A stretch of 64,000 nt of DNA from Scenedesmus sp. PABB004. Its lineage: Eukaryota. Both the position numbers and the translations under genes were made by a program. Positions 40,949 through 48,776 of this stretch are shown here, piece after piece (positions within the stretch are counted from its first letter, which is position 1; every line of letters begins with the position of its first letter). The stretch is taken from contig JABVCE010000014.1 of assembly GCA_014905635.1 (NCBI GenBank), forward strand, positions 186,001 to 250,000, written 5' to 3'. The notes beneath the pieces were generated by a model. It saw nothing but the letters and a program-made list of their open reading frames with translations. It had not been told where the DNA came from and did no database searches.

Positions 40949-42982
40949 TCACTCCGTGAGCGGGAACTGCGCCTCTGCGTCGCCCCCGTCGTTGCCGCCG
41001 CCGCCCGCGGGTGCCGCGTCGCCCGGCGCGCGCTCCGCGAGGCCGAGGTGCCGCCGCAGGAACGCGGCTGCGGGCGCGAGCTCCTCCGGGCGCACGCCCT
41101 CGGCGTGGGCCTCGAGGTGCGTGACGTCGCGCTCCTGCACGACGACCTGGCCGCCCGGCAGCCCCGCGCGCGCGAGCGCGGCGCGCAGCACCGCGGGCGG
41201 GCAGAGGTGGTCCTTTGAGGCGACACGGAAGAAGAGCGGCGCCGTCACGGCGCCGAGGCGGGCCGAGGGGTCGTAGCCGAGCGCCTCCAGCACGACGCGG
41301 GCGAGCACCTTGTTCTGCCACCCGCCCTGCCGCCGCGGCGGCGCGTTCTCGCCGCGGATGGCCATCTCGCTGTCCTGCGGCGCCGGCGCGGCGGCGGATG
41401 CTGAGGCCGGCGCCGGCTGGCGCGCGGCGGGGGCTGCCGAGTGCACCGCGCGCTGCACGCGCGCGCGCGCCCGATCCGCGCCCGCTGCGCGCCGCGCGCC
41501 GCGCGCGCGCGCCTGGAGCTGCAGCAGCGAGAGCGCCGCCGGGTCGGACAGCGGCGCGAAGAGCCGCAGGTAGATGGGCGGCAGCCCCGGCAGCCCCAGG
41601 CGCTCGCCCAGCAGCCCGCGCAGCGCGTCCGCGACGCCGACGGCGAGCAGGCGCAGCGAGCGGGCCAGGCCACGCATGCGCACCGACGCGCGCACGGCCT
41701 CGGGCGAGACGTAGGGCTCCTGCGTGGCGCGGCGCGCGCGCGTGGGGGCGGGAGACGGCAACGCGCGGGGCGCGCGCGCGTGGGGGTGGCTGAGCGGTGG
41801 CGCGCGGGGCGGGGGCCCAGCGGCGCCGGCCGCGCTCGCTCGCTCACGTTGGCGATGACGGCGCCGATGGTCCGGCCAAACTTGGCGGCGGTCACGATGA
41901 CGTGCCCCCCGCCGTAGCTCACGCCCCAGAGCGCAACGCGCGACGCGTCGACGGCTCCGCCGAGGCCGGTCGCCTGCGCGCGGGCGGGCGGCAGGCGGCG
42001 CGGCGGGCGTCGGCGGCCGCGCGCAGCACGCCCCGGCGCGCCGCCCGCGCGCCCCGCCCCGCGCGGCCCGCCCGCGCCGCGCCGCGCCGCGCCTGCACGT
42101 GCGAGACGACCGCGTCCCAGTCCTCGAGGTGCCGCCGCGGGCTGACCCAGTGGCGCGGCAGGCCGCCGCTGCCGCCAAAGCCTCGATAGTCAAACACCAG
42201 CACCGCCATGCCCTCAGCCACAAACTGCCGGGCGCGGGCGCGCGGGTGTGCGCGGCCGCGCCTGGCCCCCGCGCCGGGCCCACGCGCCCGCCGCCCGCCG
42301 CCCCTGCCGGCCCGCCGCCGCCGCCGCCGCCGCCGCCCCTGCCGGCCCGCCGCCGCCGCCGCCGCCCTGCGCTCCTGGCCCCCCTGCCCACCTTTTCTGC
42401 GTACTTCCAGAGCCCGATGTCCTTCTGCGCGCCCATGCCGTGGCCCATGATGAGCACCGGCGGCGGCCTGGCGGCGGCGGGGCCTCGTAGGGGCGCGGTG
42501 ACCAGGGGAAGGGGGGGGGGGGGCACCGCGCCGCGCCGCGCCGCGCCGCGCCGCGCCGCGCCGCGCCGCGCCGCGCCGCACCCCGCCGCGGCCGCGCCGC
42601 CCGGCGTGTGCTTGGGCGTGTAGAGCCAGCACTCGAGCGCCTCGCCGCGGCTCTGGATGGTCAGCACGCGCCGGATCCAGCCCGCCGTCTCCTGCGCGCC
42701 CGCCTCCGGCAGCGGCGTGCTGCGCGGCGGGCGGCGCGCAACGCGTGGTGCCCAGGCGGCGCCGACGCCGCAGGCAGCGGCGCGCCGCGCCGCGGGCCGC
42801 ATCGCGCACCGGTCCCAATCAAAGCTCGTGTCCAGCCGCTCCCACGGGCACGCCACCAGCAGGGCCAGCGCAGCCGCGGCGGCGCCGAGCCGCGCGCCCC
42901 ACCGCGGCAGCAGCGCCCGCGCCGCCGCCGGCTTGCGCGCCGCCGGCGCTGCCGGTAGTCCTGCTGTCGCTGGGGGTGCCAT
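40949..42982 (-). CDS. Alpha/beta-fold hydrolase with N-terminal hydrophobic segment
   Basis: PVLIMGHGMGAQKD..YAEKFVAEGMAVLVFDYRGFGGSGGLPRH, nucleophile elbow ALWGVSYGGGHV, KDHLCP, VTHLE; start at 42982 or 43006. Confidence 0.88.
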   Translation of the reverse strand: MAPPATAGLPAAPAARKPAAARALLPRWGARLGAAAAALALLVACPWERLDTSFDWDRCAMRPAARRAAACGVGAAWAPRVARRPPRSTPLPEAGAQETAGWIRRVLTIQSRGEALECWLYTPKHTPGGAAAAGCGAARRGAARRGAARRGAVPPPPLPLVTAPLRGPAAARPPPVLIMGHGMGAQKDIGLWKYAEKVGRGARSAGRRRRRRAGRGGGGGGGGGPAGAAGGGRVGPARGPGAAAHTRAPAPGSLWLRAWRCWCLTIEALAAAAACRATGSARGGTSRTGTRSSRTCRRGAARRGRAARGGARGRRAGACCARPPTPAAPPAARPRAGDRPRRSRRRVARCALGRELRRGARHRDRRQVWPDHRRRHRQRERASAAGAAGPPPRAPPLSHPHARAPRALPSPAPTRARRATQEPYVSPEAVRASVRMRGLARSLRLLAVGVADALRGLLGERLGLPGLPPIYLRLFAPLSDPAALSLLQLQARARGARRAAGADRARARVQRAVHSAAPAARQPAPASASAAAPAPQDSEMAIRGENAPPRRQGGWQNKVLARVVLEALGYDPSARLGAVTAPLFFRVASKDHLCPPAVLRAALARAGLPGGQVVVQERDVTHLEAHAEGVRPEELAPAAAFLRRHLGLAERAPGDAAPAGGGGNDGGDAEAQFPLTE

Positions 42983-43359
42983 GGCGGCGGGTGTGGGACG
43001 CGGCATGGACGCGGGGGCGTTTGCCGCTTGCGTCAGAGCAGCGGCTGCGGCGGTTCTGCGCCCCAAACGCGCGGGCGCCTGGCCCGCTGCCCGTGGTCTC
43101 CGCGCTGCTGGCCCGCCCCTGCCACAGCCGACACACCGTCGCGAGCCCCGCCGCCGCCGCCGCCGCCGCGACCGCCGCCGCTGCTGTGCTGTCGAACGCC
43201 CGGCGCCCGGCATGGTGGAGCGCAGCGGGGGGCCGTGCGGCACGCCGCAAACCCTGCCGGCCAGGCCCAGAACAACGCTAGGCCTGCTGCAGCCTGGGCG
43301 CGCGCTCGCTCGCGCCGCCGCCGCTGCTGCCGCCGGCCGCAGCAGCAGGTAGCATGCTG

Positions 43360-43625
43360 GATGGAGATGAGGCGCCGGCGCGCCCGCTCGGTGTCCACGG
43401 CCGCGAGCGCGGCCAGGCGCACCACGCGCCACACGCCCGAGCACAGCGCCACCGCGCACGCCCGCGCGCCGCGCCGCCGGCGGCGGCGCGACCACGAGCC
43501 AGACGTGCTCGGGGCGCAGGCGCGGCGCGCCCCCGGCTGAGCGCGCCACTCAGCGGGCAGGGCGTCGAGCGTGGCCCGCACCACCACGGCCGTCCCCGGC
43601 GGCCCCGTCCAGGCCGGCCAGCGCT
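43360..43625 (-). mobile_element. Degenerate 3' fragment of an L1-type non-LTR retrotransposon ORF2
   Basis: Across two frames reads AVVVRATLDALPAEW..PRLRPEHVWLVVAPP..SGVWRVVRLAALAAVDTERARR, paralleling RLHCRHIWLGRRP..QMVWDMVCIAAIHACERGRR in the element at 44158-46045. Confidence 0.55.
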
Positions 43626-44041
43626 GCGGCTGATGCCGCGCTGCTGCGGCTGCTGCTGCTGCCGCGGCGGCGCCGTCGCCGCCGGTGCGGCGGCGGCCGC
43701 CGCCGCACCGGGGCCGGCGCGCGTGTCGCCGCCGGCTGCTGGCCCACCACCAACTGCCAAGCCACCGGCGGCGCCGCTGGCGGCACGCGGCGCGCCGGCG
43801 GGGCCACAGCCCCAGCGCTGCGAGCGCAAACGCGACGCGCTCGTCGCGCCGCTGCGTGTCCGCCCCCGGGCAAAATCGACTTCCAAGAACTCGGTCCGAT
43901 CGACCCGAGCGCGCCCAACCCGAATCAGGGGTCAAAATTGGCATTCCGCGAAAATCGGTAATTTGAGTAAAGAGCAATATAAACAGCAGGATAGCCCTGC
44001 TTGTCAGTCGGTCAGCTGCGCACAACTCGTGCGTCCAGCGA

Positions 44042-44112
44042 GCGCTCGTAGTCTAGTGGTATGATAGGTCCCTGCCACGGACCAGGCCCGAGTTCGATTC
44101 TCGGCGAGCGCA
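44042..44112 (+). tRNA. trnG-GCC: tRNA-Gly (anticodon GCC), intronless
   Basis: Cloverleaf: acceptor GCGCTCG/CGAGCGC+A, D loop AGTGG, anticodon arm GGTCC-CTGCCAC-GGACC, T arm CCGAG-TTCGATT-CTCGG; T6 Pol III terminator at 44121-44126. Confidence 0.97.
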
Positions 44113-44157
44113 GACACGCGTTTTTTCTCGGCGAGCGCAGACCACTTACCAAATCAA

Positions 44158-44247
44158 TCAAAAAGAAGGCGTTTGTCGCACAACATCAACCCCGTGCGGG
44201 GACACGGGGTGGGGGTTGATGTTGTGCGACAAACGCCTTCTTTTTGA
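44158..44247. repeat. Perfect 36-bp inverted repeat (44158-44193 / 44212-44247) at the element's 5' junction
   Basis: tcaaaaagaaggcgtttgtcgcacaacatcaacccc ... ggggttgatgttgtgcgacaaacgccttctttttga. Confidence 0.97.
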
Positions 44248-44718
44248 CAGCGGGCGCCAGCGGCTGCCGCAGCCCCTGCGCTCGTTCGCGCTCGGGCTGC
44301 GCGCGCTGCCGCCGCTGGAGTGGCTGGGGCCGGGCGAGTATGACTGGCGGGCCCACAGCTGGGATGCCCCCCTGTGGGGCAACCCGCTGCTCACGGTGCG
44401 GCAGCAGTGGCGCTGGCCGGCCCAGCCGGGGGAGGAGTGTGTGCGGGATGTGGCAGTGGGCTTGGAATGTGTGGTGGCCCCGGGCTTGCGCGGGCTGCCC
44501 TGCCTGCAGACGGTGGGCCAGGCGGTCACGCTGCTGGCCGTTCTTGAATCGGATCGGTTGACTCCGCCTCGTTGGGGCCTTGGGTTGGCGGAACACATGA
44601 ATTACCTGGCTGCAGTCTGGGTGCCATGCCTGGCTTCCCGGCAGTGTTACCAGGCAGGTAGGCAGCGTGCACTCGATGACGTGCGCGCGCTGGTTGACAG
44701 GCTGCCGCCATCCTGGGT

Positions 44719-44758
44719 AAAAGATAAAGATAAAGATAGTTACACCACAGGCTCGCGC
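44719..44758 (-). mobile_element. 40-bp nested retro-insertion with 11-bp TSD (ccatcctgggt, 44708-44718 / 44759-44769)
   Basis: Minus strand reads gcgcgagcctgtggTGTAActatctttatctttatctttt, i.e. a poly(A) signal followed by a (TATCTT)n tail. Confidence 0.8.
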
Positions 44759-46400
44759 CCATCCTGGGTGGCGGCGGCGCGAGCTCGGCTGGCGGCGGCG
44801 GCGCGCGCGGGCCAGCCCGTGAGCGCCCCGGCGCCGGTGCAGCCAGCAGCGTTGGCGGCGGCGCGTGCGGCGATTGCGGTTGGCCTGGGCTGGCCGCTTG
44901 TGGGTCGGCCGGTGCAGCCTGGTTGCCGGCCGGGGGTACGGCTGGGGCAGCTCACGGTGGCGCTGGCCACGCGGCTGCAGGCGCTGCCGGCGCGCGCTGA
45001 GCTGCATGCCCGCCACCACCGCCACTGTCTGACGGTTTCTGAGTTTGATGGTTTGCCGCACATTGGGGGTGATGAGCTTGCGATGCGCACGCGCCACGCC
45101 ACGGTGTGCCAAGCCCTGGCGCGCTGGTGGCAGCTCAAGGTGCCCAACACGTACAAGGAGGCGGCCTGGCGGCTCACGCTGCAGGCCTTTCCGACTGCCA
45201 GCCGCATGCAGCCGGGGCCGGGCATGGTGGACTATTGTGTCTACTGCTGCCCAGGGCCGCTGGAGGCGCCGGAGCCAGCGGAGGCGTCCGGACTGGGCGG
45301 CGCGCTGCACCCGAGCGAGGCGCACCATTTCTGGCGGTGCCCGGTGGCAGGCGAGGTGTGGGGTGAGATCGAGAAGCAGCTGGCTGCTTTTGACTGGTGG
45401 CCGGACGGCGCGCGCTTGCACTGCAGGCACATCTGGCTGGGGCGCCGGCCGCGGGAGCAGCTGTCCCAGATGGTCTGGGACATGGTCTGCATCGCTGCAA
45501 TTCACGCGTGCGAACGCGGCCGGCGCGTGGCCTGGATTTTCCTGCAAGTGCGGGAGCGTGCCTTGCCCTTTGACGTGGCTCGACACATTGTGAGGCGGGC
45601 GGCAGTGAGTGCGTTTTGGGAGGCGCTGGCCGACTTTGCGGCGACCGCTTACGTGCCCCGCGCTGCCCGTACGCCCGACCTGACGGGCCAGCCCTTTCTG
45701 GCTTGGTGCACTCCCCGCGTCGCGGGGAGTGGCTTGGTTGTTATTCGGCGATGAGGATGGTGGCATTCTCCCAGCACTCCCGCGCGCGCGGGTTGCACGC
45801 TCGCGGGCACGCGCGACCCGCGGTCACCGGCTGCCGCCGACACTGAAACACTGCTACTGCCCAGCAGCGAGCGATCGGTCAAGGTGTGTGCGCGGAGACA
45901 GCACTGAGTGTGTGCAGGCGACGCTTTTGGGCGTGAGCGTGGCCACAGGCGGCAGCTGCGCGTGAGTGACTGACTATACCAAAGTGATGGGGTCCGTGTT
46001 TGCGCCGTAGGCGCTTGTTCACCCCTGGTAACGCCCTTCTTCTTTCTGCCGCCGCTCGCCTTTTTTCAGCCACGCCGCGCCTGCTGGGGGCCGCCCGGGG
46101 CTGCGCGGGTCCCGGCCGGCCCGGCGGCGGCCGCGCAGCGCCGGTCAACGACCGCGCCGCCGCAGCCAGCCGCCCGCCGGGCGCGGCGCTTCCCCCGTCG
46201 CAGGGGCGGCGTGGTGGTGGCGGTGTGCGCCCCTCGGCGGCTGTCGCCGGGCATGGGCCGCCGACAGCCGGCAGTGGCTGTTTACCCTCGCCCGCAGCGG
46301 CGCCCGCGGCGGCGGCGGCGCGGCGCCCGGCCACAGCCCGCCGAGCCCGACGTGAGGGCCGAGGGGCCGCGCTCCCTCCCTCGCGCCCCGCGCCTCGCCA

Positions 46401-48776
46401 CTACCGGTTGCGCCGGCTGCCCGCGCCGGCCTCCTCGTACTGCCGCTTGGTGCGCACGCACTGCCAGTAGTTGTCGCCCGCCGCAAACGCCGACGCGCCG
46501 CGCCACGCGGCGAGCTCCGGCTCCTGCGGCGCCAGCACCACGAGCTCGCACCCCTGCGGCGCGAGGCTGCGCAGCTCCGCCTCGAACCGCCGCGCAAAGC
46601 CGGGCAGGTTGACGCAGCCGCCCGTGAGCACGACCTGGCCGAACAGCAGCGGCGCGAGGCCCGCCGGGCACGCGTCCACCGCCTGCACCACCACCTCGGG
46701 CAGCCCCGCCTGCTGCAGCCCGATGTCCGACGGCCTGCGCCGCGCCGGCGGCGCCGCGCCGCGGGCGGCGGTCACGTGGGCGCAGGCCCCCGCGCGCCGG
46801 CCGCCACCAGCGCCGGGCCGTCCCCGAGGCGGCCCTGCCCGCGCACGCGCGCCGCGCCGCGCCCGTGGCGCGCACACCCACCCACCCACCCACCCACCTG
46901 AACAGCGCCTCGGGGACCATGAAGAGCTCGTTGTTCAGCGACAGCACCTGCTCGCTCCCGCCGCCGCCGCCGCCGCCGCCGCCGCGCTTGGCGCCGCCGG
47001 CGCCGGCGCCCTGCGCCGCCGCGGCGCCCTGCGCCGCCGCGGCGAGGCGCTCGGCCGCCTCCTTGCGCTCCACCTCCTCGATGTGCTGCGGCTTGGCCGG
47101 CCAGGGGCCTGCGCAGCCGGCGGCGGCGCGCGCAGCTTTGCGCGGCGCCCCGCCGCGCGCAGCAGCCCCGGGCGCCGCCGCGCCGCGCCGCGCCGCGTTG
47201 CCGGCGCCGCACCCGTGGTGATGCCGGCCAGGCGGCCGCCCGGCGGCGTGAGCGCGGCGACGAGCTCGGGCGCGGGCGGCTTGACGTAGCCGCGCAGGTT
47301 GTGCACGCCGTCCGGCAGCACCACGTCGCGGCGGTGCGGCGACCGCGCCGCCGGGTTGGAGCGCCGCAGGTCGGCCACGGCGTCCTGTGTGCGTGCGGCG
47401 CGCGGCGCGCGGCGCGCGGCGCGCGGCGCCGGGGCGGGCTCAGGAAACACTGCGCGGGGGCACCCCTCCAGCTGGCGCTGCGCCCCGCACGCCGCCCCGC
47501 GCGCCGCGCACCTCGCTGACCCAGGCGAGCTGGTCCTTGAGCCGCTCCACCAGCACGCCCTCATCGGCCATGTTGAGGCTGCGGTACGACACAGTCTCCT
47601 TCAGCAGGTTGGTCAGGGCCTTGCCGCCCAGGTTGAGCCGCCGCACCGCGCCCGGGAGGAGCTGGCCGTCGTAGAAGGGCGCCGCGTAGCAGGCCGAGAA
47701 GCCCGCGTCCACGATCACGCCCGCGCCCGCGGCCTTGGCCGCCGCGCACGCCGCCGCGCCGGCGGCGCCGAGCGCCGCGACGGGCGCGCAGCGCGCCGCC
47801 GCGGGCGCGTGCGCCGCCGCCGGCGCCGCCCCCGGCGCGGGCGGCACGCCCGGGATGGCGCACGGCGGCGGCGGCGCGGGCGCGGTGACGACGGGCGTGT
47901 TGCAGGCGTGGTGCAGCGCGAAAAACGGCGCTGGCGCGGCGAGCAGGCTGTTGAAGCCAAAGCCCTCAAACACCATCTGCGCCACACGCGGCGGCGGCGG
48001 CGGCGAGGCGGCGGCGGCGGCGCGGTGGGCGCGCGGCCCCGGGGTGGCGGCCGGGTGAGCGCGGCGGCGGCGCGGCGCGGACGCCGTCGGGGCGCGCTGC
48101 GCGCACCTCCTCCGTCGCGGCGCGCACGTCGTCAAAGTTGAACAGTGGCTCCGTGAGCAGCAGGCTGTGCGCGCCAAACTCGAGCACCGCCCGGCCGCGC
48201 GCGGCGCCGGGCGGCGCGGCGCCGCCGGCGGTCGTGGCGGCGAGCGAGGCGAAGCCGCGTGCCCAGATGTCGCGCTCCAGGTCATAGTTGACCATAAAGC
48301 CCTGCGCGGCGCGCGCGTACGAACGGCCAGGTCAGCGCGTTGCAACACAGACGAGCGGGCAGCCGACGCAGCACAGCGCTCCCGTGCCGCGCGGCTGCAA
48401 CCAACACAAGCAGACGCTGCGCTGCGCGCACACCCGGTCGTGCGGGCGCCGCACGACCATGCCGCCGACCTCGCGCGCCTCCAGCAGCGCGTCGCCGACG
48501 TATAGCTGGCGCTCGCCCTTGGCCTTGGCGGTGCAGTTGGGGAACACGCTGCGACGGCGGCGGGGCGCCGCGCGTCGGCGCGCGGCCGCCGCGGGCGGCC
48601 GCGGCAGCTCGCCGCACGGCGCGCGGCGCACGGCGCGCGGCCCGCTGCCGCTGCTGCCGTGCAGCGCGCGGGCGCCGGTCTCACAGGCGCGGGTCGGCCT
48701 CGCCCTCAAAGCCGAGCTTGATGCTGCCGGCGCCGTTGTCGAGCACGACGACCTGCTGCTGCCCGCACTGCATCAT
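46401..48776 (-). CDS. ARP6: Actin-related protein 6 (SWR1 complex), multi-exon
   Basis: VVVLDNGAGSIKLG, VFPNC, RRPHDR-GFMVNYDLERDIW, LLLTEPLFN, VIVDAGFS, RLNLGGKALTNLLKETVSYRSLNM, VVLPDG, LNNELFMVPEALFRPSDIGLQQAGLPE, VVLTGG, KRQYEEAG. Confidence 0.93.

Follow-up and report, generated by a model that had tools for sequence, protein, structure and literature searches.

Structure of the locus

The window, by which we mean the whole 64-kb stretch of DNA analysed, has a GC content of 80%; values published for Scenedesmus sp. PABB004 are 78.5% GC, 39.8 Mb, and 1.31% repeats (PMC12571836). ARAGORN called a tRNA-Gly gene with anticodon GCC in this window at 44042-44112 on the forward strand, with a canonical cloverleaf and no encoded CCA, and the Rfam model RF00005 matched it over its full length (1-71) at 64.2 bits, the gathering score being 29. 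Both searches agree with the preliminary description that this is the only tRNA gene of the 64 kb. A run of six T at 44121-44126 (forward strand), 8 nt past the tRNA, resembles a Pol III terminator and may function as one, and both the tRNA gene and this run are intact despite the LINE insertion that follows. The trailer also contains one copy of an 18-nt perfect direct repeat. Copy 1 (44098-44115, forward strand) comprises the last 15 nt of the tRNA and 3 nt of trailer, while copy 2 (44125-44142, forward strand) lies 9 nt beyond copy 1 and overlaps the end of the T6 run by two T; a repeat search found these two copies only in the window. The 15 nt at 44143-44157 (forward strand), which sit between the 18-nt repeat and the LINE, recur on neither strand of the window when up to 2 mismatches are allowed, and might be either original tRNA trailer or filler.

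The young LINE copy

A young 5'-truncated element had been described from 44158, 46 nt past the tRNA 3' end, and this was borne out. The element lies in a 3.3-kb intergenic gap, with a hydrolase gene on one side and an actin-related gene on the other, as identified by Pfam. Its main part, at 44194-46048 on the forward strand, is a 5'-truncated LINE comprising the C-terminal third of an L1-type ORF2 (about 520 codons; 44195-45754, with the stop codon at 45752-45754) and a 3' UTR (45755-46048). In metagenome contigs, colinear homology to other copies extends from 44193 to 46042, across which the contigs are about 99% identical to the window copy (one contig, for example, has 10 differences in 1110 nt), and longer copies continue 5' of 44193. 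The copies depart from the window sequence from 46043 on. Since the 3' ends of relatives place a pyrimidine tail up to 46048, the LINE-derived sequence ends at 46042-46048, and the previously proposed end at 46045 is about right.

Matches to the frame 44057-45754, which is open for 565 codons, comprise 22 proteins similar to it in length and 24 that are longer; Scenedesmus sp. PABB004 is the source of the closest named one. The full-length proteins among the longer ones, of about 1420-1430 amino acids, carry both APE endonuclease and RT domains, and the RT domain is also present in P0001, a longer copy that shares about 99% identity with the window copy. From its identity of about 99% to other copies, the insertion is judged to be recent, and on balance the young LINE would be a dead-on-arrival copy of an active L1-superfamily LINE family. 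For annotation purposes, the open frame 44057-45754 is transposon-derived and does not represent a host gene.

The 5' junction is irregular. The 36 nt at 44158-44193 were found by a repeat search to be an inverted (minus-strand) copy of LINE positions 44212-44247, with arms that are 100% complementary and a loop of 18 nt, and contigs of other copies match the window from 44193 onward only. Such an arrangement could have arisen by either a 5' inversion or a snap-back at the truncated end, and an inverted 5' end, with an inverted piece of 23 nt, is also present in the relative L003. Positions 44137-44156 and 45471-45490 also match in inverted orientation (75% over 20 nt), which was judged to be due to chance.

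At the 3' side, a second T6 run (46061-46066, forward strand) lies 12-18 nt beyond the LINE 3' end, and 46057-46067 match 44117-44127 at 10 of 11 positions. This region is a candidate target-site duplication, or might instead serve as a backup terminator. No exact repeat of at least 8 nt is common to both flanks of the young LINE, so that the 10/11 match around the T6 runs, 31 and 12-18 nt from the LINE ends, is the best duplication candidate.

The ORF2 part itself harbors a nested micro-insertion at 44708-44769 (minus strand), consisting of a 40-nt insert (44719-44758) within 11-nt direct repeats (44708-44718 and 44759-44769), with an ATCTTT-type repeat at its minus-strand end, which adds 17 in-frame codons. 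Other copies in metagenome contigs skip 51 nt at this point, with 11 letters shared, and the proteins of relatives do not have the corresponding residues; 43 nt at 44720-44762 were found again in other contigs of all four metagenome runs.

Assignment to the L1 superfamily and the 3' module

The L1-type assignment made in the preliminary description is supported by the domains of the relatives and by a match to human LINE-1 ORF2p. The RT domain, lacking in the truncated window copy, is present in full-length relatives as RVT_1 (E about 4e-25), and an N-terminal APE endonuclease (PF03372) was found in P0024, P0026, and P0035, in P0026 below the Pfam cut-off. The best solved relative is human LINE-1 ORF2p, with an E-value of 1.7e-40 across endonuclease and RT and an alignment that starts at residue 13. 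The sole Pfam match of the young ORF itself is zf-RVT at E 0.022, and the same domain reaches 2.5e-4 in P0024, both being below the Pfam cut-off. In alignments of the putative C-terminal Cys/His region, the C, C, H, and C columns are invariant.

The young LINE has no poly(A). Its 3' UTR contains a hairpin at 46002-46014 (forward strand; 5-bp stem, GTA loop), for which 25 of 25 cells are paired in an alignment of 5 sequences, with changes on both sides in 2 of the 5 pairs. Such pairing was reached by 2 of 500 shuffles, and controls slid along the alignment were 19-52% paired. A pyrimidine (CTT-like) tail follows at 46034-46048 (forward strand), as placed by alignment with the 3' ends of relatives, and pyrimidine tails terminate all 5 aligned 3' ends, followed in the L001/L007 subfamily by an A-rich run. 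The hairpin and the CT/CTT-rich tail are common to the window copy and its relatives, and short copies could be traced by them. No further copy of this 3' module was found in the 64-kb window.

An older remnant upstream of the tRNA

A second, older fragment lies on the other side of the tRNA gene, on the opposite strand as previously described. It is a frameshifted remnant of the ORF2 C-terminal region, located by tblastn and profile search at 43219-43596 (minus strand), and its GC content of about 80% is host-like. Using 190 relatives as queries, tblastn gave 136 HSPs from 100 of them (best E 5.5e-4), which form colinear minus-strand matches within 42964-43596, first in frame -1 (28 HSPs) and then in frame -2 (96). 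The similarity to L1-type ORF2, on which the earlier description of this fragment depended, was likewise found when a profile of the relatives was compared with 748 window ORFs: the minus-strand ORF 44052..43036 matched at E 1.2e-4, while the runner-up had an E-value of 0.32. Profile positions 346-414 correspond to 43455-43219, and positions 331-349 to 43528-43472 in the adjacent frame. Based on the profile match and the colinear matches in two frames, the remnant is real, frameshifted, and derived from the same ORF2 C-terminal region as the young copy. It was missed by Pfam and by the 22 closest relatives, being found with the 190 relatives only, and it resembles distant relatives more closely than the young family. 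The 5' end of the remnant can be traced to about 390-450 nt upstream of the tRNA, and the 5' ends of both LINE fragments do point towards the tRNA, as had been noted.

The remainder of the window appears to be free of retroelements, which agrees with what the preliminary description had reported: none was found by tblastn of relatives, by Pfam domains, or by the 3' module. Elsewhere in the window, tblastn with the 190 relatives gave nothing better than E 0.02 among the 25 best bins, and no transposon-type Pfam domain was detected at E <= 1e-5 in 427 six-frame ORFs of at least 90 amino acids, a scan that excludes domain-bearing elements only, since its threshold misses the young ORF too.

Loci of the relatives

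Scans of metagenomes and prokaryote genomes yielded 5 and 2 loci, respectively, and a viral scan yielded 1 marginal locus (25% identity, E 5e-4). Seven distinct relative loci (L001-L005, L007, and L008), 40-50% identical to the window family and with leading copies that have no upstream flank, were considered. ARAGORN found 0 tRNAs in these seven loci, the flanks of which are almost uninformative, and Rfam, run on L001-L005, found none there. In 4 of 4 relative contigs with at least 70 nt past the 3' end, the next feature is a 5'-truncated copy in the same orientation, and L001, L002, L003, and L007 are arrays of 5'-truncated copies, chiefly 3' ends, in one orientation. The second copy of L002 begins right after a TTC run; a putative third copy at 1116-1400 of this locus was unsupported by the 3' module profile. 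When the entire bin behind L007 was searched, no copies came up beyond the two already found.

Why the LINE lies beside the tRNA gene

We favor, with some reservation, the explanation that an ordinary LINE insertion was funnelled to a rare permissive site, for which recognition of the Pol III machinery would not be needed. In this scenario, an active L1-superfamily family would have inserted a truncated copy into the trailer of a working tRNA-Gly gene, presumably via target-primed reverse transcription, within an intergenic gap that would already have carried, on the opposite strand, what is left of a more distantly related, decayed LINE. The irregular 5' junction would have been produced by snap-back or twin priming, possibly accompanied by the copying of 15-18 nt from the tRNA end as template. 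That the LINE lies so near the tRNA would then most likely be a matter of site scarcity, a compact genome of about 80% GC offering few places that an insertion can use and the host can tolerate. Consistent with this, the tRNA flanks are AT-rich and contain the only two T6 runs of the 64 kb, between which the insertion lies. Host stretches in which a 40-nt window has no more than 50% GC amount to about 828 nt, of which 143 nt (17%, a post hoc measure of site scarcity) flank the tRNA, and the window has 9 runs of at least 5 T or A, including two within the LINE. Further, the relatives adjoin their own kind and not tRNAs. On the other hand, both LINE fragments of the window flank its sole tRNA with their 5' ends towards it, the uniform odds of landing within about 50 nt of the tRNA are roughly 0.2% per insertion, and the relatives, at 40-50% identity, may aim differently. 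No clean target-site duplication was found, so that any target preference of the family would be conjectural.

True tRNA targeting by the LINE family is possible but rather unlikely, and one locus cannot show that a family aims at tRNA genes. One route, which we regard as unlikely and which is drawn by analogy with TRE elements, is binding of TFIIIB/TFIIIC or Pol III by an ORF1 or ORF2 protein, which would place insertions at set distances from tRNA genes. The two fragments around the sole tRNA with their common orientation, the position of the young copy 46 nt downstream of an intact gene, the compact and repeat-poor host genome (PMC12571836), and convergent cases in dictyostelids (PMC5006619) are all compatible with such a route, and with repeats at about 1.3% of the genome, a preference for safe harbours would be reasonable. 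However, the case rests on a single locus, the old remnant belongs to a distant lineage and at about 390-450 nt off gives no tight spacing, and the seven relative loci, albeit with poor flanks, have no tRNA and their copies cluster with one another. Taken together, the self-neighbouring relatives, the hairpin and CT/CTT tail, and the AT-rich T-run site lean away from recognition of the Pol III machinery. Alternatively, the endonuclease or priming by a CU-rich RNA tail might favor T or pyrimidine runs. At 80% GC, such runs would be almost entirely confined to Pol III terminators, which would turn tRNA trailers into de facto targets, in the orientation of the tRNA. Under this reading, which we consider quite unlikely, CGC-G/C-TTTTTTC in the flanks would be a target-site duplication of 7-11 nt, and at the 5' junction the 18-nt repeat would result from TTC microhomology plus a stretch of 15 nt copied from a template. 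It would fit the bracketing of the insertion by the only two T6 runs in direct orientation with a 10/11 match, the pyrimidine tails in 5/5 aligned 3' ends, the L002 copy that starts after a TTC run, the 11-nt duplication at the nested micro-insertion, and the known preferences of Kibi and Koshi for TC and TTC (PMC3812793) and of Zorro3 for poly-A (PMC3956500). By contrast, 8.7% of random host segments align locally with a score as high as that of the two flanks, the reading leaves 8-18 nt unaccounted for at the 3' junction and 30 nt at the 5' one, the second T run may be a backup terminator, and the L001/L007 subfamily has an A-rich run after its tail.

Two further explanations dispense with targeting by the element. 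Replication forks pause at tRNA genes, and a break in the trailer of such a fragile site might have been patched by LINE cDNA and templated filler, independently of the endonuclease. The missing clean target-site duplication, the snap-back inverted 5' end, and the 18-nt repeat, whose copies are separated by 9 new nt in the manner of a templated repair insertion, are what such a capture would leave. Inverted 5' ends, however, also result from ordinary target-primed insertion and are present in L003, and the 3' end bears the complete family tail that normal priming predicts, making this explanation improbable. Template-switch products that join a small RNA to a LINE are exemplified by U6-L1 chimeras, and the tRNA could similarly be a retro-copy of a pre-tRNA joined to the LINE by a template jump of the RT, which might explain the partial second tRNA 3' end between the two. 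This we regard as very improbable, given that a 46-nt spacer including the T6 run parts the tRNA from the LINE, that the tRNA is full-length and canonical and the tRNA-plus-LINE unit has no flanking duplication, and that no contig joining tRNA and LINE was found in the four metagenome runs, although these contigs, among which an empty site was not seen either, show presence only and leave the unique flanks uncovered.

The locus as it stands is most likely an ordinary truncated LINE insertion. A more far-reaching, and rather doubtful, hypothesis is that a chlorophyte LINE family is enriched at tRNA trailers or terminators, in the orientation of the tRNA, through a preference for T or pyrimidine runs. 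A full-text search of a limited literature collection found no report of green-algal LINEs enriched at tRNA trailers. If true, the hypothesis would provide a plant-lineage case of convergent Pol III safe-harbour targeting by a sequence-driven route, undescribed for green algae within the literature searched, and would imply that an extreme base composition is able to create target specificity.

Comparison with known elements

The window family shares with the L1 superfamily the APE endonuclease, RT, and putative C-terminal Cys/His region of its relatives, as well as the 5' truncation and 5' inversion of the window copy. It differs in that the window copy has a hairpin and a CT/CTT-rich tail instead of poly(A), and in its C-terminal domain of about 500 amino acids, which matches zf-RVT only weakly. 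Among green-algal elements, the one-orientation arrays of the relatives fit the nested insertion described for Zepp (PMC8226300), whereas the window copy stands alone among densely spaced genes and is not part of an array, unlike Zepp/ZeppL.

Dictyostelid TRE5, TRE3, and NLTR elements likewise combine a non-LTR element near a tRNA gene, a compact genome, and an intact gene, and their tRNA targeting is described as convergent, at about 50 bp upstream, about 100 bp downstream, or 2-6 bp upstream (PMC5006619). However, this position-specific integration is documented for many copies (PMC5006619), whereas one young copy and one distant remnant are present here. That a LINE is able to live by tRNA genes is also illustrated by Dewa in the zebrafish tRNA-Leu spacer (PMC3706591). 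Kibi and Koshi, which target TC and TTC microsatellites, are similar to the window family in being of the APE type with tails that resemble pyrimidine-repeat targets (PMC3812793). Compared with such sequence-specific APE-type LINEs, one junction of the young family is visible here and no identical target recurs.

The tRNA-Gly Locus and Its Setting

The sole tRNA gene of the 64-kb window is a plus-strand tRNA-Gly(GCC) (44042-44112) with a full-length Rfam match of 64.2 bits; it does not encode CCA, and a T6 run follows 8 nt past its end (44121-44126, plus strand). According to the preliminary description, L1-type remnants flank this gene on both sides and a tRNA-targeting family might be involved; the flanking remnants are confirmed here with sharper boundaries, while the evidence on targeting leans negative for the family.

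The Scenedesmus sp. PABB004 genome is described as 39.8 Mb with 78.5% GC and 1.31% repeats (PMC12571836), values with which the window agrees. GC content is ~80% throughout the window and 68% at 44001-46000, with the dip spanning 43850-46050 at 50-nt resolution. A or T runs of at least 5 nt are exceedingly scarce (nine in 64 kb, two of these within the LINE), and the only two T6 runs in the window are both at the tRNA/LINE locus. Pfam searches of 427 six-frame ORFs of at least 90 aa returned host-type domains only, representing about 15 genes. These include a Hydrolase_4 gene (41922-42818) and an actin-family gene (46404-48705), both on the minus strand, so that the locus fills the ~3.3 kb that separate the start of the hydrolase gene from the end of the actin-related one.

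LINE Copies on Both Sides of the tRNA Gene

The young element (44158-46048) contributes most of an open frame of 565 codons (44057-45754). From 44195 on, its protein matches 22 proteins of similar length and 24 longer ones, and those of ~1420-1430 aa bear an APE endonuclease and an RT, so that the window copy comprises only the last third of ORF2 and the 3' UTR. At E ≤ 0.001, 435 cluster representatives match the element, and its closest solved structure is human LINE-1 ORF2p (E 1.7e-40, spanning endonuclease and RT). The best protein match is an annotated LINE-1 ORF2 of Scenedesmus sp. PABB004, and a longer copy, P0001, is identical to the window at 134/136 and 67/73 residues in two segments. 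Four freshwater metagenome runs contain contigs that agree with 44193-46042 at ~99% (e.g., 10 differences in 1110 nt); three of these contigs run on 5' of 44193, where they are unlike the window, indicating that longer copies exist and that the window copy is truncated. At its 5' end, 44158-44193 is a 36-nt inverted copy, without mismatch, of 44212-44247 (18-nt loop), which places the start of the LINE 46 nt past the tRNA, just as had been claimed.

Within the LINE ORF, 44708-44769 holds a 40-nt insert with a flanking 11-nt duplication, which keeps the frame and adds 17 codons. Its 43-nt core recurs at 100% in unrelated contigs from all four metagenome runs, and its minus strand has a terminal ATCTTT-type repeat; the insert resembles a drastically shortened copy of some other abundant retroposon.

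The old fragment upstream (43219-43596) is invisible to Pfam and to the 22 closest relatives. In a wider set, 100 of 190 relatives match within 42964-43596 (136 HSPs, best E 5.5e-4). Frame -1 accounts for 28 of the HSPs and frame -2 for 96, and these are colinear with the ORF2 C-terminal part. Of the 748 window ORFs, a profile derived from 209 matched domains ranks a minus-strand one first, at E 1.2e-4 (next best E 0.32), and aligned motifs carry on across the frameshift. Judged by these similarities, the old fragment is real, which bears out the earlier reading of a frameshifted ORF2 remnant on the opposite strand with its 5' side towards the tRNA; the distance to the tRNA is ~390-450 nt. Its GC has decayed to host level and its nearest relatives are distant family members. 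The interval from the old fragment to the tRNA includes a GC-rich CTG/GCC-type simple repeat (43600-43720), to which contigs of the metagenome runs show very high yet short matches that are spurious.

A Conserved 3' End and the Arrays of Relatives

Searching metagenome, viral and prokaryote-genome collections yielded seven usable loci of relatives, whose best matched segments are 39-50% identical to the query. Two of them (L007 and L008) are contigs of a bin recorded as uncultured Synechococcus (G001) and are in essence eukaryotic LINE copies; algal DNA has probably contaminated this bin.

Alignment of 3' ends revealed a module common to the window and its relatives, consisting of a hairpin, a GTAAC-type motif and a CT/CTT-rich tail (window 46002-46048; L001 6573-6626; L002 1056-1111 and 2269-2323; L004 1465-1520). 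In the window, the hairpin (46002-46014) has a 5-bp stem and a GTA loop. Pairing is kept in 25/25 cells in a small sample of five sequences, with changes on both sides in 2/5 pairs; its score was equalled by only 2/500 shuffles, and slid controls were 19-52% paired. The metagenome contigs cease matching or diverge at 46042, and the tail of the window copy extends to 46048. Poly(A) is absent from the window copy, and an A-rich run follows the tail in the L001/L007 subfamily. That the module is kept among LINE relatives with only 40-50% protein identity suggests that the RT may recognise its own 3' end.

All four contigs with at least 70 nt past a 3' end adjoin a same-orientation 5'-truncated copy within 300 nt (L001 6640-6714; L007 5248-5393; L002 1-2330; L003 1155-1266), although these relatives are distant and repeats may cause misjoins in metagenome contigs. 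The neighbouring copy in L002 begins directly after a TTC run, and that in L003 has a 23-nt inverted 5' piece, directly preceded by a T6C run. Spacing between 5'-truncated copies ranges from 11 to ~290 nt. Neither a tRNA nor a tRNA fragment was detected at the seven loci (ARAGORN on all, Rfam on L001-L005). However, none has flank upstream of its leading copy, where the window analogy predicts a tRNA, and this absence is therefore nearly uninformative.

Junction Anatomy and Choice of Target

The tRNA 3' end plus three trailer bases forms one copy of an 18-nt perfect direct repeat (44098-44115 and 44125-44142). From tRNA to LINE, the T6 run is followed by the second repeat copy and by 15 nt unique in the window. 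The repeat copies are 9 new nt apart, the last four of which (TTTT) form the T6 run with the opening TT of the second copy. The repeat may have originated as templated repair, as a micro-insertion or as a junction artefact of the LINE event. No exact repeat of at least 8 nt is shared by the flanks immediately before and after the LINE. T6 runs 31 nt before and 12-18 nt after it match at 10/11 positions, a match equalled by 8.7% of random host segments. Two reconstructions fit: a single event at the terminator, in which 7-11 nt are duplicated and the tRNA end is re-copied over 15 nt via TTC microhomology, or a blunt or deleting insertion into a trailer with two pre-existing T runs, plus a separate 27-nt templated micro-insertion. 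Under either, no more than ~45 nt separate the insertion from the tRNA 3' end, and the gene and one T6 run are left intact.

Were insertion uniform, the chance of landing within ~50 nt of the one tRNA would be ~0.2%. Host stretches holding a 40-nt window of at most 50% GC total only ~828 nt in the window, of which 143 nt (17%) are beside the tRNA. If the element requires an intergenic position with an AT- or T-rich site for nicking, its closeness to the tRNA is unremarkable. In addition, the locus was singled out because of this very coincidence. Taken together, the scarcity of such sites and the selection by coincidence favour an ordinary, bias-driven insertion, which we consider somewhat better than an even bet. 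The arrays of the relatives, distant as these are, suggest that sequence, not Pol III factors, guides the choice of target. Direction by Pol III appears unlikely, and strict sequence-driven targeting of the terminator we hold to be less probable still. Capture of the element at a break ranks below it as an improbable origin, and a template-switch chimera would be very surprising.

Comparison with Known Systems

Non-LTR elements associated with tRNA genes are known from dictyostelids, where TRE5 and NLTR-A insert upstream (~50 bp and 2-6 bp away, respectively) and TRE3 inserts ~100 bp downstream (PMC5006619), and from zebrafish, where Dewa occupies a tRNA-Leu spacer (PMC3706591); poly-A is the integration site of Zorro3, an L1-clade element from Candida albicans (PMC3956500). 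A full-text literature search of limited coverage returned no relevant report of green-algal LINEs tied to tRNA genes, and PMC12636532 proved to have no bearing on the question. The same-orientation arrays of the relatives recall APE-type LINEs whose insertion sites are TC or TTC microsatellites (PMC3812793), and they match what has been described for Zepp and Zepp-like L1 elements in green algae, namely nested arrays rich in 3' ends (PMC8226300).
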